From a virus (taxonomy: Duplodnaviria; Caudoviricetes): DNA of 64,000 bases. The translations under genes and the position numbers were made by a program. Positions 30,750-63,851 of this stretch are shown here, in pieces (position 1 is the first letter of the stretch; each line of letters starts with the position of its first letter). Under the pieces are notes generated by a model, which was not told the DNA's origin, ran no database searches, and saw only the letters and a program-made list of their open reading frames with translations. Location of the stretch: positions 32,001 to 96,000 of IMG/VR virus record IMGVR_UViG_3300012344_000001; one strand, written 5' to 3'.

Positions 30750-30992
30750 TTACACCACCCTTGCTTTTTCCGTCATAAATTCCTTGGCGTAGTTTTCGCC
30801 ATATTCGTTCTTCATAATGTCGTCGTAGACTCTGAACGCTGGCGTAAGTTTCATGTATTTATAGTGCTTTCGTGCTTCTTTCAACAGCATGTCTGCTGGT
30901 GCTAAACTACAGCCATATTCTTCAAGCGGACAGTCCGCGCATCGCCGTCTAAGACAAGCCGCTTCAAACAGAAGGTGCTTGTTCATATTCAC
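30750..30992 (-). CDS. small Cys-rich (CxxCP) protein, C-terminal tag ARVV
   Basis: CADCPL; ends KARVV. Confidence 0.65.
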   Translation of the reverse strand: MNMNKHLLFEAACLRRRCADCPLEEYGCSLAPADMLLKEARKHYKYMKLTPAFRVYDDIMKNEYGENYAKEFMTEKARVV

Positions 30993-31240
30993 ACCACCTT
31001 CGCCTGCTTGATGATTGCCCGAACCACTTCTTCGGGAAACAGCTTTGGATTTTCGCGCACCACCCGTTCAATCGCCGCTTCTGCCGCCTTGTGTGTCGGG
31101 TCGTGATGCGATAGGCATAGAAAATTCGACGTGCCATCTTCTGCGAATTTCAGCTTGTAAAGCGGACAGCCGTAGCAGGTTGCGTCTTTAGACATTTTAC
31201 AACACGTCCACAGCGCCTTGTTAAAAATTCTATCTTTCAT
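30989..31240 (-). CDS. small Cys-rich protein, tag AKVV
   Basis: CYGCPLY; ends QAKVV. Confidence 0.65.
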   Translation of the reverse strand: MKDRIFNKALWTCCKMSKDATCYGCPLYKLKFAEDGTSNFLCLSHHDPTHKAAEAAIERVVRENPKLFPEEVVRAIIKQAKVV

Positions 31241-31242
31241 GG

Positions 31243-31536
31243 CTATACCACCGTTGCATCGGTGCGATGCCATTCCATATCGGTCGTGTAATGCGGTCTA
31301 TGAACGCGTAAAATGATTTCGCCCGTGTACGGATTGGGATATAAATATCCGGCGGTGAAATGCTGACAGGTGTGATAAATCACTTTGTAACCCCATCCAT
31401 TGCAATTCTTCATTTCTTGCAGAATCATGCGTTCGACAGTTTTCTTTGCGACGGAAGGTTTCTTGTAGGTATCACACACCCTCTGTTCTGGTGCGCGATT
31501 GTATGCAGAAATAAAATGATTTTCAAAAGTGTTCAT
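31243..31536 (-). CDS. small hypothetical protein, tag ATVV
   Basis: YKKPSVAK...FTAGY; ends DATVV. Confidence 0.65.
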   Translation of the reverse strand: MNTFENHFISAYNRAPEQRVCDTYKKPSVAKKTVERMILQEMKNCNGWGYKVIYHTCQHFTAGYLYPNPYTGEIILRVHRPHYTTDMEWHRTDATVV

Positions 31537-31784
31537 ATTATATACCTCCAGCCTTCAGCACGCGATAAATTCGACCGCGCACAGGCACTCAAAGGATTCT
31601 TTCATCTGAAGTGCGTGGCGCATAGCCGCCATATACATTTCATCTTCGGGTCTGTCATCGTGAAGTTTGATGGTCGCCGTGCGTTCGTTGCCGTTGTCCA
31701 TGTTCTGATACTTCGCTTCAAAAATATACATATTGTACTCCAACAGCAGATAGATTAAAGGCTTCCCTTCCCTGCTGTAATTAT

Positions 31785-31813
31785 AGTATAGCACGCCCAT
31801 ATAAAATTGTCAA
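31785..31813 (-). promoter_or_regulatory. sigmaA promoter
   Basis: TTGACA-17-TATACT. Confidence 0.75.
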
Positions 31814-31846
31814 GCTGGACAGAAGTGAATCCGCCCAGCTTGCATA

Positions 31847-32128
31847 TTAAATTACTTCCTTATGGACGGCGCAGTAGATAATCGCCAGCATAAACACTGG
31901 GTACCACGTCCAGCGCGGCATAACCCAATCACGATAGCCGCCGTCGGTATAATAACCGATTCCAGTCAAAGTGTCAACATCAAACACCTTGTTTCTTTTC
32001 ATCAAGCGGCAGAACGTTCGCAGACTCATGACAGTATATTCGTCCGAATTATCAATGATGCCGACAATCCACAGCGCGACACAATAGACAAGAATAACTA
32101 TCAGCATGGTGACAATAAACGTAATCAT
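31847..32128 (-). CDS. small membrane protein
   Basis: two hydrophobic segments, AAGGAG SD. Confidence 0.55.
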   Translation of the reverse strand: MITFIVTMLIVILVYCVALWIVGIIDNSDEYTVMSLRTFCRLMKRNKVFDVDTLTGIGYYTDGGYRDWVMPRWTWYPVFMLAIIYCAVHKEVI

Positions 32129-32139
32129 ATTACACTCCT

Positions 32140-32352: not shown

Positions 32353-32361
32353 GATGTCACC

Positions 32362-32745: not shown

Positions 32746-32755
32746 ATAGTACACC

Positions 32756-33274: not shown

Positions 33275-33511
33275 TTATAGGACTTTCGCACCACCAATCG
33301 TTTTCCATTCGTTTGCGACCATCTGCATATAATTCGCGCCGTCTTCCTTCTTAGATTTTCGCGTATATTCTTTGCGGGCAATCCCAATAAGGTCGGCTTC
33401 GCTGAAATTGTTCATGCGGCACTTGATATTTTCGCGGTCAAACATTAGACAATCGCCGTTACACCAATTATTAGTGCAGATAATCGACTTTGCCGCGTTG
33501 TACTTTGTCAT
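33275..33511 (-). CDS. small Cys-rich protein, tag AKVL
   Basis: ICTNNWCNGDC; ends GAKVL. Confidence 0.6.
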   Translation of the reverse strand: MTKYNAAKSIICTNNWCNGDCLMFDRENIKCRMNNFSEADLIGIARKEYTRKSKKEDGANYMQMVANEWKTIGGAKVL

Positions 33512-33828
33512 AACACCACCGCCTTCTTCGCCCGCGTTGCGTTGATAAGCGTGCCATATCTGTGATTGCAAATGCCTTCTTCAAGGTGGATGTGGTAGAA
33601 ATCCAAGCTACCTTTAACATTCCAGCCGTCAAACTTGCCAAGAAAAGTGCGAAACACAAGCTGGAATTCTGTATCGGCATCGTATTCGTTGATTTGCGAC
33701 AAAAGCACATCTTCGCATTCGGGATAAATCGCCTTGGCGACTTCACCAAACTGTGCGATATTGTCGCCGAAATAAATCAAGGTGCGCGGCTTGCGTTTCA
33801 CCTGTTCTAAAATCTGTTGCGTAGTCAT
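33508..33828 (-). CDS. small protein (YFG...DGWN family), tag AVVL
   Basis: similar to 36916..37242; ends KAVVL. Confidence 0.65.
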   Translation of the reverse strand: MTTQQILEQVKRKPRTLIYFGDNIAQFGEVAKAIYPECEDVLLSQINEYDADTEFQLVFRTFLGKFDGWNVKGSLDFYHIHLEEGICNHRYGTLINATRAKKAVVL

Positions 33829-33829: not shown

Positions 33830-34048
33830 TTACACCACCTTCGCTTTCATAGGCGCAATGTCGTTGTTGTTAATCCACCAAAACCCGCCATAACCGTGGT
33901 TCATGTGCGTGTGGTTTGGTTCCCACGCGGAAAGATTGCCCTTGCCAGTGCTGCGGATTTCAACAACGGTTCCAATCGCAAAGCGGTGCCCACTGTGATT
34001 TTCAACGATTTTTACAAGGTCGCCCTTCTTAACTTTCATAATTACCAC
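33830..34048 (-). CDS. small SH3/KOW-like protein, tag AKVV
   Basis: KKGDLVKIV..HRFAIG; ends KAKVV. Confidence 0.65.
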   Translation of the reverse strand: MVIMKVKKGDLVKIVENHSGHRFAIGTVVEIRSTGKGNLSAWEPNHTHMNHGYGGFWWINNNDIAPMKAKVV

Positions 34049-35271: not shown

Positions 35272-35493
35272 TTAAATTATTTTAGCGCCGACCGGTCTTA
35301 GGTCACAGGTGTAAATTTCCTGTGAAGTTTTACGGTTGCCGCTATTTATTGTTTTGCACCGCACAGAACAAGTATCTTTCCCAACGCGGGTAATTTCGCC
35401 GATTTGTGGGATGATTGCGTAGTGGATTTTATTCGTGTTTCCCACGATTTTCACCTTTTGCCCAACGTGGAATTTATACAATCTTGGCACCAC
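35272..35493 (-). CDS. small SH3/KOW-like protein, tag AKII
   Basis: KFHVGQKVKIVG; ends GAKII. Confidence 0.65.
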   Translation of the reverse strand: MVPRLYKFHVGQKVKIVGNTNKIHYAIIPQIGEITRVGKDTCSVRCKTINSGNRKTSQEIYTCDLRPVGAKII

Positions 35494-35725
35494 CTTTTGG
35501 ATATTTTCTCGCGATTGCCGCCCATCGGTTCAGTAGTTTCTTATCGGCAGACGTTGCTCGTGGATATCTGTATTTGTACGCAAGCCGCGCAGCAGTTCGC
35601 AGGTCTTTCGTGCTTACATAGGACGATGCGCACCAGTGAACTGGACAGCGATTACAGAACGAAACGCCATATATCGGGCTGCACATTATATTTATTAGGG
35701 TGTTGCGAAATTCAAGTTCGTTCAT
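35474..35725 (-). CDS. small Cys-rich protein, tag AKIV
   Basis: CNRCPV; ends GAKIV. Confidence 0.6.
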   Translation of the reverse strand: MNELEFRNTLINIMCSPIYGVSFCNRCPVHWCASSYVSTKDLRTAARLAYKYRYPRATSADKKLLNRWAAIARKYPKGGAKIV

Positions 35726-35991
35726 ACTACCGTCGCCCTTCTTATCACAAATCGCCCATATTCTGATGGCAAATCCTTAAACATTTGCGCGTTCCCGTGT
35801 TTAATACAGGCTTTTAGAAGTTTTACACGCTTTTCGTCATATTGCGAACAACAGTCTGTGCAAATTGCCATGTCGAAATCTGTACTAATTGACATTAGCG
35901 GACAATCTTCACAGCCGCCTGAGTGGTATAGCCTGCAAAAACAGTCGGTGATTGCACTCATTGCATTTTTGCTTGGGATATCCATATTCAC
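35722..35991 (-). CDS. small Cys-rich protein, tag ATVV
   Basis: CEDCPL; ends RATVV. Confidence 0.65.
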   Translation of the reverse strand: MNMDIPSKNAMSAITDCFCRLYHSGGCEDCPLMSISTDFDMAICTDCCSQYDEKRVKLLKACIKHGNAQMFKDLPSEYGRFVIRRATVV

Positions 35992-36260
35992 ACCACCCTT
36001 GCACCATTCTTATAGTAGTACCAATTACCTTTTGGCGGCTCTTGATAGTTCTGGAAACCAATCACGGACGTTCCAGTGCAATCGCCATGCTCGTAGCGTA
36101 TCTGCGTAGAGCCGCCCCCATAAACTTCATATTCATAATGCAGTATTGGACGATGGATGGAAACGAAGTCTATATACTGTCTTGCGGTATCGCTGTTTGG
36201 GAATACGAAAATACAGGATTCACCACTGTTGGCGATTTCAAACATCTTTTTGAACGTCAT
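35988..36260 (-). CDS. small hypothetical protein, tag ARVV
   Basis: ends GARVV. Confidence 0.6.
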   Translation of the reverse strand: MTFKKMFEIANSGESCIFVFPNSDTARQYIDFVSIHRPILHYEYEVYGGGSTQIRYEHGDCTGTSVIGFQNYQEPPKGNWYYYKNGARVV

Positions 36261-36261: not shown

Positions 36262-36367
36262 TCATACTACCTCCGCACCTGCTGCGCGCAGGTCGTGTTC
36301 GATGATAATCTGCGGTGGTGTTGTCAACAATGCGAACGCGCTGTCCAACACGATATAGATAGTTCAT
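36262..36367 (-). pseudogene. internally deleted SH3/KOW-like tagged gene
   Basis: N-terminus MNYLYRVGQRVRIVDN and, in another frame, C-terminus IIEHDLRAAGAEVV*. Confidence 0.55.
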
Positions 36368-36669: not shown

Positions 36670-36694
36670 AAAAAAGACGCCCGCGAAGGCGTCT
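36670..36694 (-). terminator. intrinsic terminator
   Basis: GACGCC-TTCGCG-GGCGTC followed by T-run. Confidence 0.7.
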
Positions 36695-36914
36695 AAATGA
36701 TTTGTGCGGTGGTGGGCGCTGGCTTCAATTCGTTGAATTTGAAGTGGCACTCGACGGGCGCAATGTGGCTGTCCACCCTTATTTTAATAGGGAATCGCCT
36801 GTCTGGGTTAATGTCAATGATAACGCCAATCATGCCGTTGTCAACGGCGCGGTCTTCAAGGTATTCCGTATCGTCACAGTCGATGATAACCTTTTGTCCG
36901 ACGTAAAAATTCAC
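36693..36914 (-). CDS. small SH3-like protein, tag AQII
   Basis: FYVGQKVII; ends TAQII. Confidence 0.65.
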   Translation of the reverse strand: MNFYVGQKVIIDCDDTEYLEDRAVDNGMIGVIIDINPDRRFPIKIRVDSHIAPVECHFKFNELKPAPTTAQII

Positions 36915-36915: not shown

Positions 36916-37242
36916 CTACACCACCTTTGCCCTTCTGTCGTGCGACAAATCTACCAGTAACCATTCGTCGTCTTTTTCGCGTCCTGCGGCAGTCCAGCGG
37001 GCGTAGTGCGCTTTCTTCGTATCGAAATCCATTTTGAAGAACTCGATGCTATCTTCACGGTTGAATCCGTCGTATTTGCCGTTGGCGTACAGAATACAAA
37101 GTTCGGTGCAGTTGTCTGTTCGATGTGGCACGAATCCGCCCGTGGCTTTGTTGACGGTAACAAATGATTCCCAATCGACGCCAAAATACAGCAGAACGCG
37201 CGGGTTTTCTTTGATAACATTTTTGATTGCAGTAATATTCAT
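36916..37242 (-). CDS. small protein (YFG...DGFN family), tag AKVV
   Basis: ends RAKVV. Confidence 0.65.
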   Translation of the reverse strand: MNITAIKNVIKENPRVLLYFGVDWESFVTVNKATGGFVPHRTDNCTELCILYANGKYDGFNREDSIEFFKMDFDTKKAHYARWTAAGREKDDEWLLVDLSHDRRAKVV

Positions 37243-37294: not shown

Positions 37295-37579
37295 TTAGAC
37301 GATTTTACAGCCGCAGACATACGGGCGGAAATCAGGGTCTTCTTTGATTTCAGTTTTTATGCTTTCATGATACTTCTTGTCTGTGAAATATAGGAACTTG
37401 CCAACGTTAATGGTTCCGTCGTGGTTGTCATACGAACAACACCGTCCAAGCTTTTTGCGGATAGGGCAGGTGTTACATCCGTTTCCAAATCCAGGGATTC
37501 TGCAACCAGCGCGTTTGAAATGGTATGCAGCAGTTTCTTTGTCTATCATATTTATCACCCCACCGCAATACCGCCGCAA
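37295..37579 (-). CDS. small Cys-rich protein, tag CKIV
   Basis: CNTCPI; ends GCKIV. Confidence 0.6.
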   Translation of the reverse strand: MRRYCGGVINMIDKETAAYHFKRAGCRIPGFGNGCNTCPIRKKLGRCCSYDNHDGTINVGKFLYFTDKKYHESIKTEIKEDPDFRPYVCGCKIV

Positions 37580-37949: not shown

Positions 37950-38171
37950 CTAAACTACCGTCGCACCCGCAGGTTCTATGTCTGCTTCGCGGACGATATA
38001 ATGGCTTCCGTGTCCAGTCGATGCGTAAAACGGATGCCCATAACGGTTGACTTCGCGCCACGATTGTTCACCAAGGGCTACAATTTGCCCAATCTTAAAG
38101 CCATGGCTGTTGTGGTTGCCAATTATTCTGACACGCATACCTTGACGTGCGGTTCCAGTTTTCATGGTCAC
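37950..38171 (-). CDS. small SH3/KOW-like protein, tag ATVV
   Basis: RVRIIGNHNSHGFKIGQIV; ends GATVV. Confidence 0.65.
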   Translation of the reverse strand: MTMKTGTARQGMRVRIIGNHNSHGFKIGQIVALGEQSWREVNRYGHPFYASTGHGSHYIVREADIEPAGATVV

Positions 38172-38692
38172 ACCACCTTTGCAGACGACGGTTTGATTTT
38201 CTTTATATATTGCAGGGGAACATTAACATTGGTGTTATATATGTTTGCATAGACAATGGCTTCGCCGTGTAATATTGATTTGACGCGCCCCGTGAAAACA
38301 CCTGTGCCTACAAGGTCGCCAGCTTTGATGCTTTGGACGTCGTTCCACATCTTGACCAGTTTTGGGATATCTTCGTCGGTAAATCCGACTGGACAGACGG
38401 TACAACCGATGTGGTAAAATTCGCCAAAGCGGTGTTCAATATAGGCTTGACCGCCACAGTGACACGGGACAGCTTTTTGTTCGCTGGATTTGATAAGCTT
38501 TTTAATGCGATTATTCTTGATTGATTTCTTGATGCGGTCAATGCAAAAATCATGAATCGCACTAACAAAAAGGATGGTGGCGGAGATGGCTAACGCCACA
38601 AAAAGAATCCACATAAAAACACACGCAATCTTTTCTATCACAACACCACCGCCTTCATATATTTCGCCATGATTTCGTTGACGCGGGTACAT
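38168..38692 (-). CDS. TM + Lar-like Zn ribbon + SH3-like protein, tag AKVV
   Basis: PCHCGG...CTVC...WN; ends SAKVV. Confidence 0.55.
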   Translation of the reverse strand: MYPRQRNHGEIYEGGGVVIEKIACVFMWILFVALAISATILFVSAIHDFCIDRIKKSIKNNRIKKLIKSSEQKAVPCHCGGQAYIEHRFGEFYHIGCTVCPVGFTDEDIPKLVKMWNDVQSIKAGDLVGTGVFTGRVKSILHGEAIVYANIYNTNVNVPLQYIKKIKPSSAKVV

Positions 38693-38874
38693 TGCTTGCG
38701 CTGCGTTGGCGTCTTTGTGTTCATATATTCGCCAACAGCCCTTAGAAGTTCGTGCGTTACAGGCGTGTCTTTGCGACAGCGGTAGTAACAGTCGTCGCTA
38801 TCGGTTAGCGGACAAAGGTCGCACATATAATTAACACAAACGAACCTTCGCAAATATTCGCCGTCATACTTCAT
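38638..38874 (-). CDS. small Cys-rich protein, tag AVVL
   Basis: CDLCPL; ends KAVVL. Confidence 0.6.
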   Translation of the reverse strand: MKYDGEYLRRFVCVNYMCDLCPLTDSDDCYYRCRKDTPVTHELLRAVGEYMNTKTPTQRKQCTRVNEIMAKYMKAVVL

Positions 38875-39146
38875 AATATAGTTCCTTTCATCGCCACGCC
38901 AATTTCGCGCATATCTTCGGCGGTAAAACATTCGCGATATTCTGGATTTTTAATCAAGTCTTGAAAGGCGCGGTTCGCTGCAACTTGTCCAGCCGTCGTA
39001 AATATTTCATCACACCAGAATGTGGGGTCTGCGCCTTCTTCGCCTGTTGGATATTTATATGGATAAAGCGGGCAATCTTCACAATTCGCAGCCGTTTCAC
39101 AGATTCTTCCTGTCAGGTGTTCTATATTGACGTTAGTTACCGGCAC
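38871..39146 (-). CDS. small Cys-rich protein, tag GTIL
   Basis: CEDCPLY; ends KGTIL. Confidence 0.6.
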   Translation of the reverse strand: MPVTNVNIEHLTGRICETAANCEDCPLYPYKYPTGEEGADPTFWCDEIFTTAGQVAANRAFQDLIKNPEYRECFTAEDMREIGVAMKGTIL

Positions 39147-39543
39147 AGTCTATCACCTCTTCCCACGCTTCATACGTTTCGTTCCACCAGCACTTCGGCG
39201 AATCGTTCCACACTTCTTCGTCAAATTCGGCATAGTTATTTGCGAAATCTGCCACGTCGCTTGCCTTGGCGTCGCCGAGTCGCACAAGACCGCTTTCGTC
39301 ACAGATTGCGACGGGCTTACCATCAACAAGCATCACCTGCATTAACACACTGTCGATTGCAACAGCAACATCAATCCAGTCGCCCATGTCGGTGGACATG
39401 ATAATTGTGCCAAGGCGACCATTCACAGAAATAGGTCGGGCGAACGCACATTCAAGACAGTTGCAGTCTTGATAGGACGTGCAGAGGTCGCAAAGCGCGT
39501 CGTTCATAGCTTCGACGTATTGATTTTTTTCTTCGCGGGTCAT
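39133..39543 (-). CDS. Cys-containing hypothetical protein (untagged)
   Basis: 136 aa. Confidence 0.55.
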   Translation of the reverse strand: MTREEKNQYVEAMNDALCDLCTSYQDCNCLECAFARPISVNGRLGTIIMSTDMGDWIDVAVAIDSVLMQVMLVDGKPVAICDESGLVRLGDAKASDVADFANNYAEFDEEVWNDSPKCWWNETYEAWEEVIDCAGN

Positions 39544-39755
39544 AACACAACCGCCTTTCTGATTGGTTTAACGTCAACAAATGAAACCCACTGGTCGTAG
39601 ATTCTGCCATCGTGTCCACAGCCAAAAACTTTGAAGCTGGTGGAATCCATGTCTACGACTTCGGCAGTAGATGGTATGGCAAGGCAATGATTGATTCGCG
39701 ATTTGCCAATAATTCGCACTTTGTCACCGATTTTGATTCTATTCATTTTCATCAC
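39540..39755 (-). CDS. small SH3/KOW-like protein, tag AVVL
   Basis: IKIGDKVRIIG; ends KAVVL. Confidence 0.65.
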   Translation of the reverse strand: MMKMNRIKIGDKVRIIGKSRINHCLAIPSTAEVVDMDSTSFKVFGCGHDGRIYDQWVSFVDVKPIRKAVVL

Positions 39756-39788: not shown

Positions 39789-40118
39789 TCAAACCACTAC
39801 GGCGGCGCGGCGAATGTATTTCTGCGCCAGTTTCCACATTTTGTCGCGACTAAGAATCCGTGTGTCGTCATTTTCATCAACAAGGCGAAGCCTTCCCCAA
39901 TACGCGCGGCTATGCACGGCTTCATCCCAAATCTTTTCGTTGATTTCAAAATGCTTAACAAGCGTGAAATTTTTGATGGCGCAATAGGCGGTGAAACCAT
40001 CCTGATAGTTGACGTAGGAACACGCATCGGACGTCGTTAGGACAATTCCGTATTGACCGAAACGGTTAGATTTCGGATTATTGTTGCGCACAATGTCGCA
40101 AGAACAAGCAAATTTCAT
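39789..40118 (-). CDS. small SH3-like protein, tag AVVV
   Basis: ends RAAVVV. Confidence 0.6.
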   Translation of the reverse strand: MKFACSCDIVRNNNPKSNRFGQYGIVLTTSDACSYVNYQDGFTAYCAIKNFTLVKHFEINEKIWDEAVHSRAYWGRLRLVDENDDTRILSRDKMWKLAQKYIRRAAVVV

Positions 40119-40766
40119 TTAACCACCTGCTTTATACGGTAAAAATTTGGTAATCTTGCCGCCATACTCTTTGTTGCCGTGGTCGCAGACCCAAACCGCC
40201 TGACCTTCATCAATCATGTAAACGGGCTTGTTGTACTTGGTCGCATAGTTGCGGAAAAGTTCCTTGTGTTGAATCCAGCCGCCCGCATGGGGCTTCACCA
40301 GAAAATCGGTAAGGCTAAGGCTGTTCAGTTCATCACCAGCAAGACAGAGATAATTGTCGTCGGCAACGGATGCAAGTTCGATGGTCGGACTGATAATGTG
40401 GGAACCGGCAGAAACGCCCATCAAGATACCGCGCTGTGCAAACTTGCGAAGGTCGTCATCAAGACCACGGAAATGAATCATAGTCCATTCTTCAAAAGTA
40501 TTCCCGCCGCTTACCAAAATCGCATCGCTTTCAAGCGCGTAGTCCCAACGCTTCTTGTCGAAGTTTTCACCAACAGGGCAAATAATGTATTCTTCAAAAC
40601 CCATCTTAGCAGCGAAGTAAGGCGGATAGTCGCGGGTGGTCGCCTGCCAATAGGACGGAATGACGGCGATACGACGATTCTTGCCGTGCTTATTCAGCCA
40701 GTCATTCACGCGGTTGTTTAGACGCTTATCACCACAGGTGGTAGAAAATAGAATTACGTTTTTCAC
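40119..40766 (-). CDS. peptidase E (S51) / class I glutamine amidotransferase-like
   Basis: VSGGNT, GVSAGS nucleophile, VKPH. Confidence 0.85.
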   Translation of the reverse strand: MKNVILFSTTCGDKRLNNRVNDWLNKHGKNRRIAVIPSYWQATTRDYPPYFAAKMGFEEYIICPVGENFDKKRWDYALESDAILVSGGNTFEEWTMIHFRGLDDDLRKFAQRGILMGVSAGSHIISPTIELASVADDNYLCLAGDELNSLSLTDFLVKPHAGGWIQHKELFRNYATKYNKPVYMIDEGQAVWVCDHGNKEYGGKITKFLPYKAGG

Positions 40767-41833
40767 TTCTTCTTGTCCTCCTTCACGCACTTGTTTTTGC
40801 AAGACAGCCAATTCTTATAGCTGTGCAAATCGGTAAATTTTTTACCGCAGCAAACACAATGCAGCTCTTCTGTTCCCATGTTACGAACTTTCGGTTCCGA
40901 TACGCCGAACCAAGAATAATTGTAAACATCATAATAATAGGAGCCCTGTTGGTTGTTCCTTTTTGCGCCGTTGTGCATTTTCCAGTTTTCGCCACCCATG
41001 ACTTCGTGAAGCATTTCGCCCCAAACGTCACGGATTGCGTCGCTGGGCGTACCGTTATAATGCCCGTAGACCACGTTGGTCAAATCGTTCTTGTCGATGG
41101 TCAGCAACTGACGGAAAATCATATCCGTCCATTCAAACGAACCGTAGTCATTTGCGAACACGGCTGTCTTGTTGTGGTCAAGATATGCCACGGTGGTGCA
41201 ATCGTCGCGCATCAAAGAAAATCCGCCGACCTTATTGAAGCCGCCACGATTCTGCGTGCGGTCGTTGCGGTCATAGAGAATGGACATACAACTACCCCAT
41301 TTATGCGTGTTGGTAGACAGCATAACCATATCCACGGGGTCGATACTAACGATTGCGCGACCCTTGACCATATTGTTCTGCAAAATCTTCGACAGTTCCA
41401 CGTCGAAGTCATAGTCGTTCAGAATCTTCGACAGAACTTTAGACGTCTTTGCGCCCTTACGATAGACACGGGGGAACAGCCACGCCAGCGTCTTGCTGGT
41501 CGTCTTGTTGATAACGCCTTCACAGAAATCTTCCGTGCGCAGTTCGCTGATGGTCGCGGCATACGCGGGATACTTGCGGCAAAGTTCTTGAATATTCGAC
41601 CGCATCGTCTCGTTGTCGGCGGGAATTTCGACTTCGCGAATTAGGCGCGTCTTGTGTCCAAACAGTTCAAACATCCACGCCTTAGCGGCAACCCACTGAC
41701 GCAGATATTCGTTCACCTGCTTGCGCGAAATCGTTTTCGGGTCAATTTCAGCAGTGATTTTGACGGCTTCCATAAACGCCTTTTTGTCGACCGCCGCCAA
41801 CATTTCCTTTTTAAGTTCAGCAGAAACAGTCAT
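40763..41833 (-). CDS. hypothetical SIDPxD...W.SC family protein (paralog 1)
   Basis: VSIDPVDMVMLSTNTHKWGSC; C-terminal CVCCG. Confidence 0.7.
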   Translation of the reverse strand: MTVSAELKKEMLAAVDKKAFMEAVKITAEIDPKTISRKQVNEYLRQWVAAKAWMFELFGHKTRLIREVEIPADNETMRSNIQELCRKYPAYAATISELRTEDFCEGVINKTTSKTLAWLFPRVYRKGAKTSKVLSKILNDYDFDVELSKILQNNMVKGRAIVSIDPVDMVMLSTNTHKWGSCMSILYDRNDRTQNRGGFNKVGGFSLMRDDCTTVAYLDHNKTAVFANDYGSFEWTDMIFRQLLTIDKNDLTNVVYGHYNGTPSDAIRDVWGEMLHEVMGGENWKMHNGAKRNNQQGSYYYDVYNYSWFGVSEPKVRNMGTEELHCVCCGKKFTDLHSYKNWLSCKNKCVKEDKKK

Positions 41834-41944: not shown

Positions 41945-43492
41945 TTACTGACAGTTATCGAACACGGCGTTGTTTTTGATTTCGCGACCGCAACACAGGC
42001 AATACAGCTTGCCACCCGCAGTCACCTGCACCTTGGACATATCCGTGTTGGCGGGCGAAATCAGCGCCTTCTTGATTTCGGGATAGGAACGCTTCAAGGA
42101 TTCCCACTCGTGGATGTCGCTATAGTGATGGTTCGTCACGTCGGCATACACGGGCTTGTTCCCGAAATACTTTTCGCCGTGAATCCGCTTCAAGTCACCA
42201 TAGTTATCCCAATCGGTCACGCCGATATAAGAACCGATGGTGTTTTCCAGCAGTTCACGCGCTTTTTCAGACACGACTTCGATGTCCTTGTGCTGGGGAT
42301 ATTCGCGACCAAACAGGAACGTGCAGTTCATACGGTCGCCGTTGATAATCTGGCGCCAAGACTTGGAATTGCCCTCAAAGGCGTTCTTGCCGAAGTTATA
42401 TTCGTCGCGTTCGCCATCCTGTCGCGCCACGATGCGGTCGTACAGATACGTCTTGCCGTTGTCGCGATACGCAATCAGCGCGTTCGGGTCCCAAATCCAC
42501 TGGACAGTTCCATAGTTCATAGAACCGTACAATTTCTGACAGGTGCTCCACCCATGCATATTCGTGCCGGAGGTCATGAAGTCGTACGGGTCGATGCTAA
42601 CGCATACAAACCCCTTAATCATGCGATTCTGCATGACCTTGCTGAAGTCGATGTCAAATTCCTTGTTCTGGAAAAGCTGGCTAAAGAACTTGGAAATCTT
42701 CATGCCCTTCTTGTAGACGTCGGGCGCATAGGTCTTGTAGAAATCGCACTTCGGCATTTCGTTCTTCGTGAAGTAGTCGATGCCGTCGCGACCACCCGCT
42801 TCGACAACCTTGTCGATAGACGCGGCATACTGGGGCCACTTCTTGTACATATCATACACCATGGGGCGCATTTCGTTCGCGTCCATCGTATATTCGATGG
42901 GCGTGCGGATGATAAGCTGATGACCAAATGCGACATAGTAGTCGTACTTCGCTTCTGCCCACTTACGAAGAAGAATGTCGATTGCTTCGTCGGTCGGCTT
43001 CTTGCCGTTACCAACAGCGACGGAACAAAGCTTGCGGAAGCGGTCGCGGTCGACCTTATCCATCATTTCCTTGATAATATCTTCGTCCTGCACGTCGTGG
43101 TGGATGCTATAATTCTTCATTGCGGGCTTCGCGCTTTCGACTTCGGGTTCCTTGTCGCGGAAAGAAAGCACAGAAAATGGAACGGCAACGTCGAAACCAG
43201 TCTTGAAGTCGCCGGTGAAACCGTTCGCGCGAACCTGTTCCTGACGTTCGGCGGGAATTTCGTCGTTGATTGTCACGTCAACGCTTTCGCCAGAATCCAT
43301 CTGCCAACGCATATAATCGTCGGCAAGAAGGCAAAGCCCCTTAGCCCAAAGAAGTTCCTTGGGATATTCCTTGTCCGCGTCGAAACGATTGATGATAAGA
43401 ACATCGCCGTCATGAATGCCGCGAAGATGGGGATATTTCGAAAAATTCCAAGCATCTTCCTTGCATTCAACCTTTTTGACAATCTCTGCCAT
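41945..43492 (-). CDS. hypothetical SIDPxD...W.TC family protein (paralog 2)
   Basis: VSIDPYDFMTSGTNMHGWSTC; C-terminal CLCCG; own promoter 43539-43567. Confidence 0.75.
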   Translation of the reverse strand: MAEIVKKVECKEDAWNFSKYPHLRGIHDGDVLIINRFDADKEYPKELLWAKGLCLLADDYMRWQMDSGESVDVTINDEIPAERQEQVRANGFTGDFKTGFDVAVPFSVLSFRDKEPEVESAKPAMKNYSIHHDVQDEDIIKEMMDKVDRDRFRKLCSVAVGNGKKPTDEAIDILLRKWAEAKYDYYVAFGHQLIIRTPIEYTMDANEMRPMVYDMYKKWPQYAASIDKVVEAGGRDGIDYFTKNEMPKCDFYKTYAPDVYKKGMKISKFFSQLFQNKEFDIDFSKVMQNRMIKGFVCVSIDPYDFMTSGTNMHGWSTCQKLYGSMNYGTVQWIWDPNALIAYRDNGKTYLYDRIVARQDGERDEYNFGKNAFEGNSKSWRQIINGDRMNCTFLFGREYPQHKDIEVVSEKARELLENTIGSYIGVTDWDNYGDLKRIHGEKYFGNKPVYADVTNHHYSDIHEWESLKRSYPEIKKALISPANTDMSKVQVTAGGKLYCLCCGREIKNNAVFDNCQ

Positions 43493-44115: not shown

Positions 44116-44263
44116 TTTTCATTTCTCCTTTAATATTAAAGATTTTTATGTTCACAGGCGACCAACCTGTTCACACCGTTTCCTGTTATGCTATTATATT
44201 AGCACACATTTTGGTTTTTTGTCAAGGTCGTGCGGCGGTTAAACCGCACGACCTGTAATTTCC

Positions 44264-44336: not shown

Positions 44337-44389
44337 ATTTCCAACTGTGCTATTATAATAACACACGCTTTAGATTTTGTCAAGTGCTT

Positions 44390-48742: not shown

Positions 48743-48952
48743 TTAGATGATTTTTGCGCGGGTTTGCACCGGTTCAAAGAAGACGGTTTCAACGTCCCAT
48801 TCGTTCCCAGCATATCGCCCTTCGATGATGCGCACTTCAATATAGCCCTGTTTTAGTCTTGAAGTGCTTGTCACCATGCACTTCACATGATAATCTGTTT
48901 GGGTATACTGTTCGCTCGTATTACACCAAACAATTTGACCGACTTTGAACAC
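48743..48952 (-). CDS. small SH3-like protein (MFKVGQIVW family), tag AKII
   Basis: paralog of 51219 and 62394; ends RAKII. Confidence 0.65.
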   Translation of the reverse strand: MFKVGQIVWCNTSEQYTQTDYHVKCMVTSTSRLKQGYIEVRIIEGRYAGNEWDVETVFFEPVQTRAKII

Positions 48953-48955: not shown

Positions 48956-49173
48956 CTACACCACCTTTGCCTTTAGATAAATCTGCCTTTCAAAACACGA
49001 CACGCGAATATCGGTCAGAACATCGCTGCCGCTTTTTGCGACAAGCTTTTTGTCGACAATCGCATAGTCGCGACGGACGTCGGCATATTTTTCGTCTTTA
49101 CAGCAACGACGCGATAAACGTTCGTGTCGTATACCAGCAAATCACCAATGCGCGGCTTATATCCGTTAGTCAT
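48956..49173 (-). pseudogene. frameshifted small SH3-like tagged gene (or sequencing error)
   Basis: MTNGYKPRIGDLLVYD... shifts frame near 49098 to ...QIYLKAKVV*; span is 218 nt. Confidence 0.6.
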
Positions 49174-49964: not shown

Positions 49965-50192
49965 TCACACAACTTGCGCTTTGTCAAGTCCCTTTGCAAG
50001 TTCAAAGAAGCAGGTGTGGCTACCATAATCAAACCAATAATGGTCTGAAAATTCGCACCAGCGGACATAGAACGACTGAAAGTCGTGTTCTTTGCACCAG
50101 TCGCCAATCATATCAAGGGCTTCGTTTACGTTGTCAGCGTTTCCAACGAACGTGCGGTCGCCTTTTCTGTCAAGCCATTCAAGACGCATCAA
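49965..50192 (-). CDS. small hypothetical protein, tag AQVV
   Basis: FYVRW...WFDYGSH; ends KAQVV. Confidence 0.6.
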   Translation of the reverse strand: MMRLEWLDRKGDRTFVGNADNVNEALDMIGDWCKEHDFQSFYVRWCEFSDHYWFDYGSHTCFFELAKGLDKAQVV

Positions 50193-50440
50193 TCGTCACC
50201 TTCCATCCGCGTCAGTTCGTAGATACTGTTGCGTGTCACGATGCGAATATCGCCTTCGCACAGATAGTCTACTTCCTGAATTGTGGACGTGTGGACACCA
50301 CCACCATCGACAGGGCGAATATAGCCACGTTCGCCAACGTTGATATTTTCAAGGTCGGTTACAACCTTGCCGTTGACCAATTCGTGGACATAGGTTAATT
50401 CGCGACCTTCGCGGGGATAGACATTGCAATAATACTTCAC
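50189..50440 (-). CDS. hypothetical protein
   Basis: HTSTIQEV...IVTRNSIYEL. Confidence 0.55.
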   Translation of the reverse strand: MKYYCNVYPREGRELTYVHELVNGKVVTDLENINVGERGYIRPVDGGGVHTSTIQEVDYLCEGDIRIVTRNSIYELTRMEGDD

Positions 50441-50751
50441 AGAATCTTCGCCACCTTTCTTTCGGGGATGTAAAATGTTCCGATTGTACGCCAATTTTCA
50501 TGTTCGGATGGATACCAGTCAAGGTCACTATCCCAGCCGTTATATTCACCGTCTTGGTTAAACCAAAGGTAGTTGCCGTGCCAATACGCTTTGCCGATTT
50601 TTCTAAGAAAAGATACGGCGTCATTGTTTGATTCGACAAACACAACAACTTCTGAAAAATCTATAAACGGAATCGTTTTTATGTCGGCTATGCTATCAAG
50701 TTTTTGCCAGTTCAACTTAACGCCACCAATTTCTTTGCGAAGATTCATCAT
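50437..50751 (-). CDS. small hypothetical protein, tag AKIL
   Basis: YNGWD; ends VAKIL. Confidence 0.6.
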   Translation of the reverse strand: MMNLRKEIGGVKLNWQKLDSIADIKTIPFIDFSEVVVFVESNNDAVSFLRKIGKAYWHGNYLWFNQDGEYNGWDSDLDWYPSEHENWRTIGTFYIPERKVAKIL

Positions 50752-50988: not shown

Positions 50989-51222
50989 TCACACCACCCT
51001 TGCTTTCACGCGAACAATGTGAAGGATGTTCGGATTGCCGGTAAACCAGTGTGGTTCACAGGTGCTATATTTGCCCAGCTTTTCGCCAACCCTATCGCCG
51101 TCGCGAAAGTGTGTACAAATAAGTCTTACTCCAACAGCAGATGTTTCCAGCACAGTCCAGACACGACCTTTATTGCCATCAGAAAACACAAGGTCGCCCT
51201 TGCGAAAGTCCGAAAATTTCAT
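50989..51222 (-). CDS. small SH3-like protein, tag ARVV
   Basis: FRKGDLVFS; ends KARVV. Confidence 0.65.
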   Translation of the reverse strand: MKFSDFRKGDLVFSDGNKGRVWTVLETSAVGVRLICTHFRDGDRVGEKLGKYSTCEPHWFTGNPNILHIVRVKARVV

Positions 51223-51425
51223 AAGACCACCGCCTTATTTTGCACCAGCTCGAAACAATTTCCGTCCACAGGATATGTGTAGCCAGAATAGCGTCCTTCT
51301 AAAACCTTAACACGGATAGCACAATTCATTTTGTGCGCTTCGGTCACTTCGCACTTGACGTGATAATTTGTAATGTCATAGATGCCATTTCTTTTGCACC
51401 AGACGATTTGTCCGACCTTGAACAT
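51219..51425 (-). CDS. small SH3-like protein (MFKVGQIVW family), tag AVVL
   Basis: ends KAVVL. Confidence 0.65.
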   Translation of the reverse strand: MFKVGQIVWCKRNGIYDITNYHVKCEVTEAHKMNCAIRVKVLEGRYSGYTYPVDGNCFELVQNKAVVL

Positions 51426-51427: not shown

Positions 51428-51715
51428 TTACACCACCTTCGCCGACCGCGGTCTGTCGAATGACAGAACGGAATATTCGCGTCCTTCAAAATATCCCTTG
51501 CCATTTTTAATGTCATAACAATTATTCGGGCACACCGTATACCCCGCGTATTTGTTGAAAATGAACCGGTACGCAATAACGTCTGAATAGTCATTTATTG
51601 CGCCGCTGTATTTCTGTCGAATACGCTTGTATAGTTCTTTTGTATTCTTGTTGAAAACAACGATTGCGAAGTCGTGGTTTTGGATGAAATTAACAGCCTT
51701 ATCAAAATCATTCAT
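51428..51715 (-). CDS. small hypothetical protein, tag AKVV
   Basis: ends SAKVV; promoter 51742-51770. Confidence 0.6.
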   Translation of the reverse strand: MNDFDKAVNFIQNHDFAIVVFNKNTKELYKRIRQKYSGAINDYSDVIAYRFIFNKYAGYTVCPNNCYDIKNGKGYFEGREYSVLSFDRPRSAKVV

Positions 51716-53090: not shown

Positions 53091-54340
53091 GTGAACTACA
53101 CACGATGATAAAGCACCGGTGCTTCCTAATCAATATCTCTAACGAGACAAGTTTACTTAGGCTATCCCCGTAGTTCCTACGGTTCTTATTCTCAATCCTT
53201 CATTAAGAATATTTATTGCAGCGTTAATGCCTCTATCGTGAACAGTTCCACATTGCGGACACACCCATTCTCTAACAGACAAATCCTTTATTTCTGTATT
53301 TTTGTATCCGCATTTACTACACAACTGCGAACTTGGATACCACGAATCAATTTTCACAATTTCTCTTCCGTACCAGTTTGCTTTGTATTCCAGTTGTCGT
53401 ACAAATTCTGACCATGATACATCAGCAATAGACTTAGCGAGTTTATGATTTTTCATCATATTCTTAACTTTCAATGTTTCCAGACATATGACTTGGTTTT
53501 CATCAATCAGTCTTTTTGAAAGTTTGTTTAGAAAGTCCTTGCGTTGATTCGTTATTTTCTCGTGACAACGTGCAACTTTAATTCTACATTTCTCTCGATT
53601 TTTACTTCCTTTTTTACAACGAGACAAGTCTTTCTGCAACTTCCGCAGTTTCTTTTCTGATTTTTTCAAGTATTTCGGATTTTCAATCACTTTGCCATCA
53701 GAAGTGGTTGCGAACCCCTTGATTCCCAAATCTATTCCAAGTTCAGAATCACATGGAATTTTCTTTGGAATATCTTCTTGTTCAACAAGAACCGAAACAT
53801 AATATTTTCCCGATGGCGTTCTTGTAATGGTAGCGTGTTTGATTGTTCCAAAAAAATTCCTGTGTTTCTTAATCCTGACAAGTCCAATTTTCGGAAGGTT
53901 AATGTGTCGTTCTGTCACGCGGATATTGGCTTGATTTGTAGTATAAGAATCATATCGCGTTTTCTTACTTTTGAATTTTGGGAACCCAACTTCTGGTCGC
54001 TTGAAGAAGTTGTTGTACGCTGTCCGTAAATTCATCTGAGCATTTGACAACGCTTGCGCATCGACTTCTCGAAGCCATGGAAATTCGTCTTTATATTGGG
54101 CTGGCGTATTTTTCAGGTTTTGTTTTGTCTTATTGTAAAACTCGATTTTATCAGCAAGCATACGATTGTAGATAAATCTGACGCAACCGAAGCATTTTGA
54201 AAAATAAGTTTTCTGTTCTTCATTTGGATACATTCTATATTTGTAGGCAATCAACATATCTACAATCACTTCCTTTCCGATATAGTTCTCTTTCTTTTGC
54301 CGACTATGCTAAAGCATAGCGGATATCTTTGATTTCATGT
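53091..54340 (-). mobile_element. IS200/IS605-type non-autonomous tnpB element
   Basis: right end ...GTGTAGTTCAC at 53091; left-end-like hairpin CTATGCT-TT-AGCATAG at about 54304-54319; left boundary approximate. Confidence 0.7.
53157..54257 (-). CDS. tnpB: TnpB with RuvC-III Asp-to-Gly substitution
   Basis: [18 protein letters not shown], but HDRGINAA instead of HDRDINAA. Confidence 0.9.
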
Positions 54341-56941: not shown

Positions 56942-57274
56942 TCACACCACCTTTGCTTTTTGTTCTGGTACATTCCACGGATAAAACGCCACTTCCCAAA
57001 GCGCGCCGTTATATTTTGCGCGATATTTGTCATGCGAATATTGGATTCGCGTGATAACATATTCGATTCCGAACGCGGTATCACGAAACCGATAACCGTC
57101 TGGAAAGCGCGGCGAAACGAACTTAACGGACGACATCTTCATGCGAAGTTTCACACCGCTGTCAACAATAAAACGGGCGCGGTCGTTTTCGTCTGGCATG
57201 TCAATAATCCAAACGTGGCGACCATAGAATTTTGAATTTTTATTTGTGATGATATATTTGTCCAGATAGTTCAT
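56942..57274 (-). CDS. small hypothetical protein, tag AKVV
   Basis: ends KAKVV. Confidence 0.6.
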   Translation of the reverse strand: MNYLDKYIITNKNSKFYGRHVWIIDMPDENDRARFIVDSGVKLRMKMSSVKFVSPRFPDGYRFRDTAFGIEYVITRIQYSHDKYRAKYNGALWEVAFYPWNVPEQKAKVV

Positions 57275-57501
57275 ACTACTTTCGCCACCTTTCTTCTGTG
57301 TAAGCGTAGATTGTACGCATCTGCGCTACGCCAATACGGTTCAGAACCTGAGTCGGGATAGATTTTGTCACCAGCGCGCTTATAGTTCGGAACAAGCCTA
57401 ACGCGATTGTCATAGCGGTCAATTTCGACGACCGTGTAAGCATAATGGACGTTTTCCGTAGAAAACAAGATGTCGCCAACGTGATAGTCCCCAATCGTCA
57501 T
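57271..57501 (-). CDS. small SH3-like protein, tag AKVV
   Basis: YHVGDILFS; paralog of 50989; ends VAKVV. Confidence 0.65.
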   Translation of the reverse strand: MTIGDYHVGDILFSTENVHYAYTVVEIDRYDNRVRLVPNYKRAGDKIYPDSGSEPYWRSADAYNLRLHRRKVAKVV

Positions 57502-57734
57502 AATACCACCGCCTTCTTTTGGACTTTTCGACAGAAATTTTCGGGGAATACGGTATACGCGCCGCCAATGTGTGAGAAATGGCGTTGCAGATTATGGTCA
57601 TATTTTTCAACGGTTTGCACTGTGACTGTGCGCGACGCGTCGTTCTTATGCGTAACCTTATAACGATACGTTTTATCTTCGGAATCGGCAATCAAAATAT
57701 CGCCTATGTTGATTTCGTTGTAAGTCACAGTCAC
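57498..57734 (-). CDS. small SH3-like protein, tag AVVL
   Basis: INIGDILIA; ends KAVVL. Confidence 0.65.
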   Translation of the reverse strand: MTVTYNEINIGDILIADSEDKTYRYKVTHKNDASRTVTVQTVEKYDHNLQRHFSHIGGAYTVFPENFCRKVQKKAVVL

Positions 57735-57976
57735 ACCACCTTTGCACCGAAATATACGCCGATTTTGTTCGCTTCTGCCATCGTGCGTTCGCCATGGTCA
57801 ATTCGCCACTTCATAACGCGAAGCAACTGTGCGCGTTTCTTAGGATTGCAATTCCACGCTTCCGTGATAGAATAGCACCTGCCCAATACTTGCTGCATAC
57901 AACAAGTGTTGTTACAGGCCGAACCACCGCAGATAAAGCTACAAACGTTGCTACCCTCAACATTGTCAAAACGCAT
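57731..57976 (-). CDS. small Cys-rich protein, tag AKVV
   Basis: FICGGSACNNTCC; ends GAKVV; promoter 58002-58030. Confidence 0.6.
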   Translation of the reverse strand: MRFDNVEGSNVCSFICGGSACNNTCCMQQVLGRCYSITEAWNCNPKKRAQLLRVMKWRIDHGERTMAEANKIGVYFGAKVV

Positions 57977-62388: not shown

Positions 62389-62393
62389 TCATA

Positions 62394-62600
62394 TCACACC
62401 ACCTTCGCCTGTTTTGGAATAAGTTCAAATTGACCGACATCCATACCGTATATCCATTCAAGTCTTGTGTCATCCTTGCTAATAGACGCAACATTTATTC
62501 GTCCACTTTCTTGTTCCGTTATATCGCACACAAAGAATTTGACGTGGTAACTTGGCTTGGATTTGTCTTTTCCCCACACAATTTGTCCAAGCTTAAACAT
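62394..62600 (-). CDS. small SH3-like protein (MFKLGQIVW family), tag AKVV
   Basis: ends QAKVV. Confidence 0.65.
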   Translation of the reverse strand: MFKLGQIVWGKDKSKPSYHVKFFVCDITEQESGRINVASISKDDTRLEWIYGMDVGQFELIPKQAKVV

Positions 62601-62602
62601 GG

Positions 62603-62779
62603 CTACACCACCTTCGCGGTTTTCTTCTTCACAGGATAAGCCCATATTTTCGTCGCGTTAGCCCACCAGTCTTGTTCGCTGTAAATTTGATACGCCGACG
62701 GAATCCAGTTGGCGGTCGTATTGTTATATTCCGTTCGTGCATAGTCGGTTGCTATAATATAATAATCAATTTTCGCCAT
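62603..62779 (-). CDS. small hypothetical protein, tag AKVV
   Basis: MAKIDYY...; ends TAKVV. Confidence 0.55.
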   Translation of the reverse strand: MAKIDYYIIATDYARTEYNNTTANWIPSAYQIYSEQDWWANATKIWAYPVKKKTAKVV

Positions 62780-63227
62780 CTTTGACCGCCGTTTCTTCGT
62801 CCATAAAATCTTCCGCCACACCATCGCGCGGTTCGACTTCACCCTTAATTCGCGCAAGAAGATATTCCAAATCTTCGATAGATGCTTCATAGAAACTGAT
62901 GTCCCAAATCCAATAATCAGAAAATTGTGGAGCCTTAAATTTTAGCGCATACTTATCGCACCACAGCCTATCCCAAAGTGCCTGTCTGCCTTCGCCAGGT
63001 TTCGCCAGCATATCCATGATTTCATGCACCAGTTTTCCGCGTACCTTGCCCTTATTGTCGTCGTCCCGCGACACATAATCACGCGCATTCTGCGACGTGC
63101 GTACAAACATCGGCTTGCCGCGATAATACAGCATATCACCAACAAGGTCAAGCGACTTTCCATAAGGAATGTTTACATCGCCAGAAATAGACTTAATTCG
63201 CATCCTACGATTTGTAATATATCTCAT
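62766..63227 (-). CDS. hypothetical phage protein
   Basis: MRYITNRR...VNIPYG...SQNARDY..RDDDNKG..RG.L. Confidence 0.65.
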   Translation of the reverse strand: MRYITNRRMRIKSISGDVNIPYGKSLDLVGDMLYYRGKPMFVRTSQNARDYVSRDDDNKGKVRGKLVHEIMDMLAKPGEGRQALWDRLWCDKYALKFKAPQFSDYWIWDISFYEASIEDLEYLLARIKGEVEPRDGVAEDFMDEETAVKDGEN

Positions 63228-63400
63228 TATTTCCCCAGCCTTTCCCCGCAGAACGGGCAATAATTTATATAGATTCTGTCATAGACGAAGTCGTCTTCGT
63301 AGATGTCCCATTCGCCAGTTTCGTGGTCAAGATACCATTCACCGACCGCATCTTGAAAAATCGTGCAATCGTTTGAACCATAGTCGCAGTATTTACACAT
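63223..63400 (-). CDS. small Zn-ribbon protein
   Basis: MCKYC...INYCPFCG; coordinates approximate. Confidence 0.55.
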
Positions 63401-63639
63401 TATATAACCGCCGCCTTTCGATAACGCGCAATAATTTCACGCGCCGTTTCTTCGTCTTTGTCTGTAAGCATAAGTTCATCGCTATTTGGTAAATCAATTA
63501 TTCTTTTTGCGACTTCCACGACTTCTTGGCTTGTTGGTTCGACATCGCAATCGCCATATTTATTCAGCGGACATTCGTCGCACGAATCATAGCGCGAACA
63601 AATAAATTCGTTCAGCAGAAAATATTCTTTGTCATTCAA
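63400..63639 (-). CDS. small Cys-rich protein, tag AAVI
   Basis: FICSRYDSCDECPL; ends KAAVI. Confidence 0.65.
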   Translation of the reverse strand: MNDKEYFLLNEFICSRYDSCDECPLNKYGDCDVEPTSQEVVEVAKRIIDLPNSDELMLTDKDEETAREIIARYRKAAVI

Positions 63640-63851
63640 ACAACCACCGCCTTCATATAGCGCGACAAAATTTCCATTGTCTGCAATCCCGCAACGCCAG
63701 ATTTGCGGTATACAATCAGTGCATACTTCACAAGTTCCTTATCTGGCGTTTCCGTGTTACAGGGGACCCAAGCATCAATAGGGCAAGTGCCGCACGCACC
63801 AAAATTTCCGCAAATATACCTGTGTAAGATTTCGCGTTCATTTGCCGTCAT
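63636..63851 (-). CDS. small Cys-rich protein, tag AVVV
   Basis: YICGNFGACGTCPI; ends KAVVV; promoter 63870-63898. Confidence 0.65.
   Translation of the reverse strand: MTANEREILHRYICGNFGACGTCPIDAWVPCNTETPDKELVKYALIVYRKSGVAGLQTMEILSRYMKAVVV

Follow-up and report, generated by a model that had tools for sequence, protein, structure and literature searches.

We have analyzed a window of 64,000 nucleotides (nt) of a phage genome (Caudoviricetes), bases 32001-96000 of the single 107,954-bp virus record IMGVR_UViG_3300012344_000001, in which small proteins of several families finish with the same four-residue tail, A-x-[VI]-[VIL] at the extreme C-terminus. The tail is probably a peptide-level signal, acquired by several unrelated early-protein families of one phage clade and co-evolved with the junctions at which their genes are coupled. 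Where it overlaps the Shine-Dalgarno (SD) site of the following gene, the overlap would be a case of dual coding. The requirement for an SD is not sufficient to explain the conserved residues of the tail, because coupled gene ends without a tail exist, the SD moves relative to the tail, SDs of the GGAGG type are missing from it, tails occur on genes with no coupled successor, codon changes in relatives preserve the residues, and distant homologues are tailless.

The original prediction listed 35 C-termini of this kind, and all of them are present in the sequence: on the minus strand, the four residues given for each precede every listed stop. Our own gene caller, which combines a periodic Markov model with an SD score and tiling, places 33 of the 35 in called genes; the other two, 36262 and 48956 (genes are named here by the coordinate of the stop), are remnants of broken genes from which the following gene nevertheless takes its SD. 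We took A-x-[VI]-[VIL] at the C-terminus as the strict motif; the endings CKIV and GTIL are loose forms (Table 1). Internal 4-mers match the strict motif at a frequency of 0.0018. Of the 166 called genes, 31 end in it; every one of these lies at 30.7-63.9 kb of the window, and none is longer than 160 amino acids (aa). Among small genes it is found on 31 of the 59 at 30.5-64 kb and on 0 of the 40 elsewhere (Fisher p = 1.3e-9). No protein of more than 160 aa carries the tail, and the claim that structural, replication, and enzyme genes are free of it holds. The genes of 25.5-64 kb lie on the minus strand, and because 13 near-consensus sigma-A promoters at 30-50 kb, matching TTGACA-17-TATAAT at 11-12 of 12 positions, are all on this same gene strand, it is reasonable to regard the small genes of the region as early.

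When the window and its relatives are taken together, there are 109 distinct tagged ends. Position -4 is Ala, for which GCA, GCG, GCT, and GCC are all in use; position -3, two before the last residue, is the variable one and is Lys or Arg in 60% of the ends; positions -2 and -1 are Val, Ile, or Leu, so that the last residue is aliphatic. Lys or Arg also stands at -6 and -5 in approximately 40-50%. A register-shifted relative of the tail, which lies outside our motif definitions, ends the 96-aa product of 49170-49460 (minus strand) as GRVVA, with RVVV or KVVL in relatives. Two other accounts of the motif were considered and rejected: a Chi-like DNA site, as the position of the motif follows stops and not a strand-wide spacing, and an alternative genetic code, as all three stops are used and long open reading frames (ORFs) are intact. 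We found no description in the literature of phage-wide C-terminal tails, or of tails of such a kind imposed by the SD.

That many tails double as the SD of the next gene, as had been proposed, is borne out by 39 of the 109 distinct tagged ends, in which the codons are GCR-ARG-GTG-GTN, followed by the stop and, 1-2 nt later, by ATG. In about three quarters of cases the tail shares nucleotides with the next SD or lies right beside it, with a stop-to-start spacing of -4 to +2 nt, and in both respects these tails resemble ordinary SD-stop-start coupled junctions. An SD duplex, complementary to the anti-SD and 3-10 nt ahead of a downstream start, is predicted at 26 tagged ends in the genome and at 84 with the relatives included, with a mean of approximately -12 kcal/mol by our own scripts. 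Roughly five junction designs can be told apart: the tail itself is the SD; K-A-V is the SD and V-L the spacer, with stop and start overlapping as ATGA; R-K-V is the SD and A-K-[VI]-[VIL] the spacer; K-G-G is the SD and the next start lies inside the tail; or there is no SD at all. Across these designs the 3′ end of the SD falls between two extremes, 1 nt within the stop and 10 nt upstream of the stop, a spread of 11 nt, and the register of the motif to the C-terminus is fixed. The Ala at -4 falls outside the SD, at a constant distance from the stop and a varying distance from the SD. Ordinary coupled genes finish with varied polar residues, whereas the phage tails hold their frame, the Ala at -4, and the aliphatic pair while the SD moves.

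The form of the SD differs as well. Within tagged tails, 0 of 26 SDs are of the GGAGG type, compared with 18 of 54 and 23 of 59 in other contexts; they are GGTGG or GGCGG, which in the frame of the tail read Val or Ala, and GGAGG would give Glu. Coupled gene ends without the tail number 56 in the genome (34 of 34 outside the tagged region and 22 inside it), and they close on residues such as GG, E, K, or W. In 50 kb of Geobacillus virus E3, the tail was found on 0 of 74 coding sequences.

Eight tagged genes of the window have no coupled next gene and use non-SD codons (33275, 37950, 39789, 49965, 36693, 35272, 48743, and 37295). A promoter comes after three of these tails (33275, 37950, and 39789), one lies in a promoter spacer (49965), and one precedes a terminator (36693); two are followed by a separate downstream SD (35272 and 48743), and the last by a gap of 52 nt without a called signal (37295). 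The earlier observation that some tails stand before a promoter or terminator was thus correct, the promoters being those at 33270, 37948, 39792, and 49987 and the terminator that at 36694. The strict tail is present on 7 of 68 uncoupled genes, compared with 0.12 expected (p = 5e-11, with the cases made partly dependent by paralogy).

Conservation was followed in relatives of a single clade, those used for orthogroups having 72-88% nucleotide identity. All 36 codon changes seen at -4, -2, and -1 leave these positions small, aliphatic, and aliphatic, respectively, against a neutral expectation of 0.57 per change (P = 1e-9, the allowed residue classes having been set after the data were seen); the motif survives in 14 of the 14 changes in tails without an SD-like core and in 7 of the 7 in uncoupled tails. 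Orthologues vary as AKII/AKLV, AQVV/AQIV/AKVL, and AVVV/AIVV, and uncoupled orthologues of 67-72% identity keep the motif through conservative replacements. Among database homologues of the SH3-like family, 106 of 120 have the strict motif, and the remainder mostly end in AKLV. More distant proteins are different: the two-domain 4-Cys proteins P0158 and P0165 have polar ends and no tail, and the homologue of 49965 in Staphylococcus Twort-like phages (Romulus) aligns to within a few residues of its end and then finishes in EGGTNG, an ordinary SD-encoded end. A word-based homologue search for 49965 returned close orthologues only. A concerted shift of the tail in one lineage was also looked for, and none was found, save for more Gly at -4 in relative L004, where the SD moves upstream.

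These results support the prediction that the peptide itself, besides the SD overlapping it, is a target of selection. The C-terminal register is fixed and the SD register variable, non-SD codons encode the same residues, uncoupled orthologues keep them, and other coupled ends and distant homologues do without them; the tail is neither restricted to stops that overlap a downstream SD nor lost elsewhere.

The tagged proteins had been described as some 35 unrelated ones. Several distinct families are indeed present, but their independence was overstated, as they amount to about three families plus singletons, with two of the 35 being remnants. Judged by eye and by alignment, an SH3/KOW-like family with the signature FKVGQxV (alignments A1/A3/A4) has approximately 12 members and a 4-Cys family with CxxCP (A2/A5) approximately 11; a YFG..DGxN group has two or three, and there are approximately six singletons. 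Paralogues within each large family have a mean identity of 22-27%; with bodies diverged this far, the tail Ala is therefore among the best conserved columns. It is one of just three nearly invariant columns in the SH3-like alignment and is kept in at least 70% of the members in the 4-Cys alignment. One SH3-like and one 4-Cys member, used as tblastn queries, had no match in known phages.

Structure models place the tail on the outside. The AlphaFold2 (AF2) model of 48743, with a predicted local distance difference test (pLDDT) score of 85.6, is a five-strand barrel whose best structural matches, all weak, are NusG-KOW, ribosomal KOW proteins, and SH3 and Tudor domains; its last strand stops at residue 61 of 69, leaving the tail outside the barrel, and the mean pLDDT of the final block is 66. 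The AF2 model of a 4-Cys protein is helical and had no PDB fold match in Foldseek; its last helix stops at residue 76 of 83, and residues 81-83 have pLDDT values below 50. The models suggest the same unstructured, protruding C-terminal end on two different folds, which is supportive and not decisive, because low pLDDT at termini is common in such models. The notion that the tail is the last strand of the structure was rejected, AF2 having put the tail outside the fold.

The tail, [A/G]-x-[V/I]-[V/I/L]-COOH and mostly preceded by one or two Lys or Arg residues, is probably a clade-specific short linear motif, placed on several unrelated families of small early proteins at the junctions of tightly packed, translationally coupled genes. 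In approximately three quarters of the copies the next SD occupies the same or neighboring nucleotides, as AAGG-T/C-GGTG, a form that reads Val or Ala and not Glu; the peptide is probably under purifying selection of its own and is predicted to protrude from the fold with a free carboxylate, where a single common partner may read it. Nonpolar C-termini destabilize bacterial proteins, and the tail may give the early proteins a limited lifetime, with any bound cargo perhaps going to the protease along with them. As the reader we tentatively propose a ClpX-type AAA+ protease or unfoldase of the host, an assignment made by analogy that we consider possible rather than probable. It is favored because an exposed, basic-then-aliphatic C-terminus with a free carboxylate follows the general grammar of the MuA and ssrA signals for ClpX, and because only early proteins carry the tail, and for them a short-lived existence is plausible.

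The likeness can be specified. MuA ends in RRKKAI, a C-terminal degron for ClpX (PMC8138137), and MuA-type (RRKKAI-COOH) and ssrA-type signals share with the phage tail a short exposed element at the extreme C-terminus, a free carboxylate, and portability between unrelated proteins; in the order of basic, small, and aliphatic residues the phage tail is alike without being identical. The AF2 models of the two families are consistent with accessibility at this end, since they show coil and a declining pLDDT over the last 7-8 residues. Unlike these signals, the phage tail has another sequence, occurs in a single phage on approximately 30 proteins, and is intertwined with the SD of the following gene. 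The XB tail of SspB (…LRVVK-COOH), which docks on ClpX's zinc-binding domain (PMC8138137), likewise has a C-terminal R/K-V-V element and offers the model of an unvarying handle attached to a body that binds substrates. It differs in having a long flexible linker and a terminal Lys, whereas the phage linker is approximately seven residues and the end an aliphatic pair; neither the SspB-type linker nor the SspB fold is found in the phage proteins, the bodies of which are SH3/KOW-like or 4-Cys helical. SspB is, moreover, proteobacterial and missing from Firmicutes such as B. subtilis (PMC8138137).

Several points weigh against this reading. The tail matches no experimentally defined degron, and it does no more than resemble MuA RRKKAI and SspB LRVVK. 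A purine-rich SD in the frame of the tail encodes basic residues anyway, and recombination could be what maintains the identity of the type-1 junctions. Since the majority of the tagged genes come from a small number of paralogue families, the tail was perhaps acquired independently 8-10 times, not 35. A motif found in one clade, set against a universal ClpX, suits a clade-specific reader as well or better. Among approximately 35 window proteins scanned against family libraries, there was no unfoldase gene, and the ClpP-like gene of the phage may be a head protease. The post hoc residue classes of the substitution test and the reliance on our own gene caller also count here.

The phage had been said to encode its own ClpP. 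The product of 21643-22266 contains a Pfam CLP_protease domain (86 bits, cut-off 20), but it falls far below the curated cut-offs of the NCBIfam ClpP models (53-75 bits against cut-offs of 228-308; for instance, 75 against 249) and scores 51 bits, with a cut-off of 120, against the NCBIfam model of a ClpP-related head protease. Its top PHROG matches are head maturation proteases, no other protease was found between the portal gene and the putative capsid gene, and the gene adjoins HNH and PhoH genes on the other strand. From these matches it may be a head maturation protease, and a connection with the tails cannot be drawn at present. Two other genes encode peptidase-like proteins. A Peptidase_S51 of the PepE/cyanophycinase family (Pfam 1.6e-20), unusual in a phage, is encoded in the early region at 40119-40766 on the minus strand, directly upstream of the tagged gene 39789-40118, and a 325-aa protein encoded at 44845-45822, also on the minus strand, has borderline M20/M42/PepT-like peptidase matches (approximately 23-27 bits). 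With the ClpP-like gene counted, three peptidase-like genes (S51, M20-like, and ClpP-like) thus lie outside the head module. Ligands of PDZ or tail-specific proteases have a hydrophobic last residue and a defined residue two positions earlier; the phage tail ends on an aliphatic residue, but its variable position is the one two earlier. No PDZ domain was found among approximately 20 window proteins scanned against Pfam.

Much of what argues for a degradation signal applies equally to the main rival, a docking handle that involves no proteolysis, by which the tail would plug small binding domains into one phage or host hub and so have them localized or activated as a group; the hub might be a replication, transcription, or remodeling complex, or a phage peptidase. 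The evidence for selection on the peptide and for its exposure does not distinguish the two. The restriction of the motif to one clade and its lack in distant homologues in other Firmicute phages would point to a clade-specific reader, and a constant tail on fast-diverging paralogue bodies is what one sees when binders vary and their handle does not. The same genome also encodes, at 101048-101428 (69048-69428 in window numbering, beyond its end), a 126-aa protein with an SSB-like ending, ...SSDLPF, which from that ending alone we take to be a single-stranded DNA-binding protein (SSB) with the classical acidic C-terminal docking tail. We nevertheless consider docking somewhat unlikely: for the conserved proteins of 40763-41833 and 41945-43492, considered as hubs, neither family, solved-structure, nor Atlas searches gave a lead, four residues make a very small interface, and the tail was not seen to shift in concert between lineages, as co-evolution with a reader would lead one to expect. 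Docking and degradation could also be joined, the tail making two fast-evolving binder libraries (SH3/KOW-like and 4-Cys) into interchangeable adaptors for targeted degradation or recruitment. Each body would then grip a different host or defense protein, and the tail would hand the complex to a host AAA+ protease or to a phage hub, in a system run by the phage and encoded by the very nucleotides through which translation of the gene array is coupled; this seems to us distinctly improbable.

The peptide might, on the other hand, have no function and be the by-product of an SD-stop-start junction (GCR AAG GTG GTG TRA n ATG) spread by duplication and by exchange of cassettes through short homologies, the non-SD tails being relics or chance. 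The 12-mer common to 39 of the 109 distinct ends is a good SD, the tagged genes are mostly paralogues, in the remnants 36262 and 48956 the motif persists as nothing but an SD, and AAGGTGGTG also serves as an intergenic SD in the phage genome. Moreover, relatives L004, L007, and L010 have an extra tagged gene, SH3-like and 72 aa long (16711-16929 of L004), that is missing from the window at 50748-50751, where the flanking genes overlap; TGATGAA is repeated at the junctions on both sides of it, which suggests that whole gene cassettes may be gained or lost by recombination at conserved junctions. Such a history would leave unexplained the Ala at -4, outside the SD, written with four codons, and fixed to the stop; tails encoded as AAA ATC ATC, CAA ATC ATT, AAA GTC CTA, and CGC GTG GTA; the promoter-spacer tail of 49965, whose distant homologue has none; the conservative replacements in uncoupled orthologues; and the 56 coupled ends that lack a tail. 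We therefore think it unlikely. A role in cis, with a terminal Ala-x-Val-Val tuning termination and re-initiation at coupled junctions, or with the tail as a strand for self-association, is very unlikely. The last two residues of a protein affect the efficiency of termination, and the motif sits exactly at junctions of this sort, with their spacing of -4 to +2 nt; however, the same kind of coupling occurs without a tail in late and replication genes, eight tagged genes of the window have no coupled successor, and AF2 puts the tail outside the fold in two architectures.

Table 1. Tagged genes, gene remnants, and the ClpP-like gene of the window (window positions; "tail = SD" marks tail codons that form the SD of the next gene)
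Positions	Strand	Length (aa)	Family or type	C-terminus	Junction and other features	Orthologue endings
21643..22266	+		Divergent ClpP-like serine protease		Pfam CLP_protease domain
30750..30986	-	78	4-Cys	ARVV	Tail = SD
30989..31240	-	83	4-Cys	AKVV	Tail = SD; tail disordered in AF2 model	AKVV/ARVV/ARLV/ARMV
31243..31536	-	97	Singleton	ATVV	Weak SD CGGTGGTA
33275..33511	-	78	4-Cys	AKVL	Non-SD codons; promoter after, next gene 81 nt off
33508..33828	-	106	YFG..DGxN	AVVL	SD = K-A-V; ATGA overlap
33830..34039	-	69	SH3-like	AKVV	Tail = SD
35272..35481	-	69	SH3-like	AKII	GCT AAA ATA ATT; separate GGAGG SD of next gene 15 nt on
35474..35725	-	83	4-Cys	AKIV	SD upstream in K-G-G; TTG start of next gene within tail
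35722..35985	-	87	4-Cys	ATVV
35988..36260	-	90		ARVV	Tail = SD
36262..36367	-		SH3-like gene remnant	AEVV	Out-of-frame 3′ end, no longer translated; internal deletion of ~105 nt; GGAGGT still the SD of 35988-36260; intact orthologue in L001 (3772-3987, 71 aa)
36693..36914	-	73	SH3-like	AQII	Non-SD codons; intrinsic terminator after (36694)
36916..37242	-	108	YFG..DGxN	AKVV	Tail = SD
37295..37549	-	84	4-Cys	CKIV (loose)	Uncoupled	CKIV, with synonymous change
37950..38165	-	71	SH3-like	ATVV	Promoter after
38168..38641	-	157	Grouped by eye with SH3-like	AKVV	Tail = SD; Cys-rich stretch; hydrophobic N-terminal stretch, membrane helix by eye
38638..38874	-	78	4-Cys	AVVL		AVIL
38871..39146	-	91	4-Cys	GTIL (loose)	SD upstream in K-G
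39540..39746	-	68	SH3-like	AVVL		AVIL
39789..40118	-	109	Singleton	AVVV	Uncoupled; -35 box overlaps stop	AIVV
48743..48952	-	69	SH3-like	AKII	Non-SD codons; own SD of next gene 16 nt on	AKII/AKLV
48956..49003	-		ORF remnant	AKVV	No usable start; serves as SD of 48743-48952
49965..50189	-	74		AQVV	Within spacer of TTGACA-17-TATTAT promoter	AQIV/AKVL
50437..50751	-	104		AKIL	Tail = SD-start spacer; SD upstream (R-K-V)	AKII/AKIL, five codon versions
50989..51222	-	77	SH3-like	ARVV	Tail = SD
51219..51425	-	68	SH3-like	AVVL	Paralogue of 48743 and 62394	AVIV
51428..51715	-	95		AKVV	Tail = SD
56942..57274	-	110		AKVV		GTVV, ATII
57271..57501	-	76	SH3-like	AKVV	GCG AAA GTA GTA = spacer; SD upstream
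57498..57728	-	76	SH3-like	AVVL
57731..57976	-	81	Cys-rich family	AKVV		AKVV/AEVV/VEVV
62394..62600	-	68	SH3-like	AKVV	Tail = SD of DNA polymerase gene
62603..62779	-	58	Singleton	AKVV	Tail = SD
63400..63639	-	79	4-Cys	AAVI
63636..63851	-	71	4-Cys	AVVV

The phage is uncultured. Megablast against deposited phages found no near relative, and viral contigs queried with the phage polymerase held no close one. For PolIII-alpha, the identity with the proteins of Lactococcus phage 949, Geobacillus virus E3, and large Bacillus siphophages is 36-43%. Metagenome assemblies contained many relatives, of 104-112 kb, and a search of sequencing runs gave, with the exception of one coded study, only small shares, from gut metagenomes of pigs and cattle. 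Bacterial genomes searched with the SH3-like alignment A3 gave no match, although the same search matched metagenomes, and a TnpB query aimed at the host gave none either. The window itself has three TnpB/OrfB_IS605-like paralogues on the minus strand (2572-3708, 47059-48117, and 53157-54257; the family was assigned by BLAST and the Pfam names come from the genes of relatives), and the copies in relatives are at partly different positions. A single tRNA-Glu (anticodon TTC) is encoded at 44263-44337 on the minus strand, in a promoter-rich, gene-poor stretch of 43.5-44.9 kb. In L004, PolIII-alpha was called as two ORFs of 1001 and 306 aa (6022-9949), compared with one of 1453 aa in the window, and the gene may be split or interrupted in that lineage.

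Should the tail prove a mere by-product of the junction, it would be a useful warning for the discovery of motifs at gene ends. If it is a working tag, one phage clade would govern the fate of half its early proteome by means of four residues, and one peptide together with one reader would provide an experimental handle on approximately 30 orphan proteins. It would also be a clear instance of dual coding: the ribosome-binding site limits the protein signal and is limited by it in turn, with GGTGG or GGCGG taking the place of GGAGG wherever a tail includes the SD.

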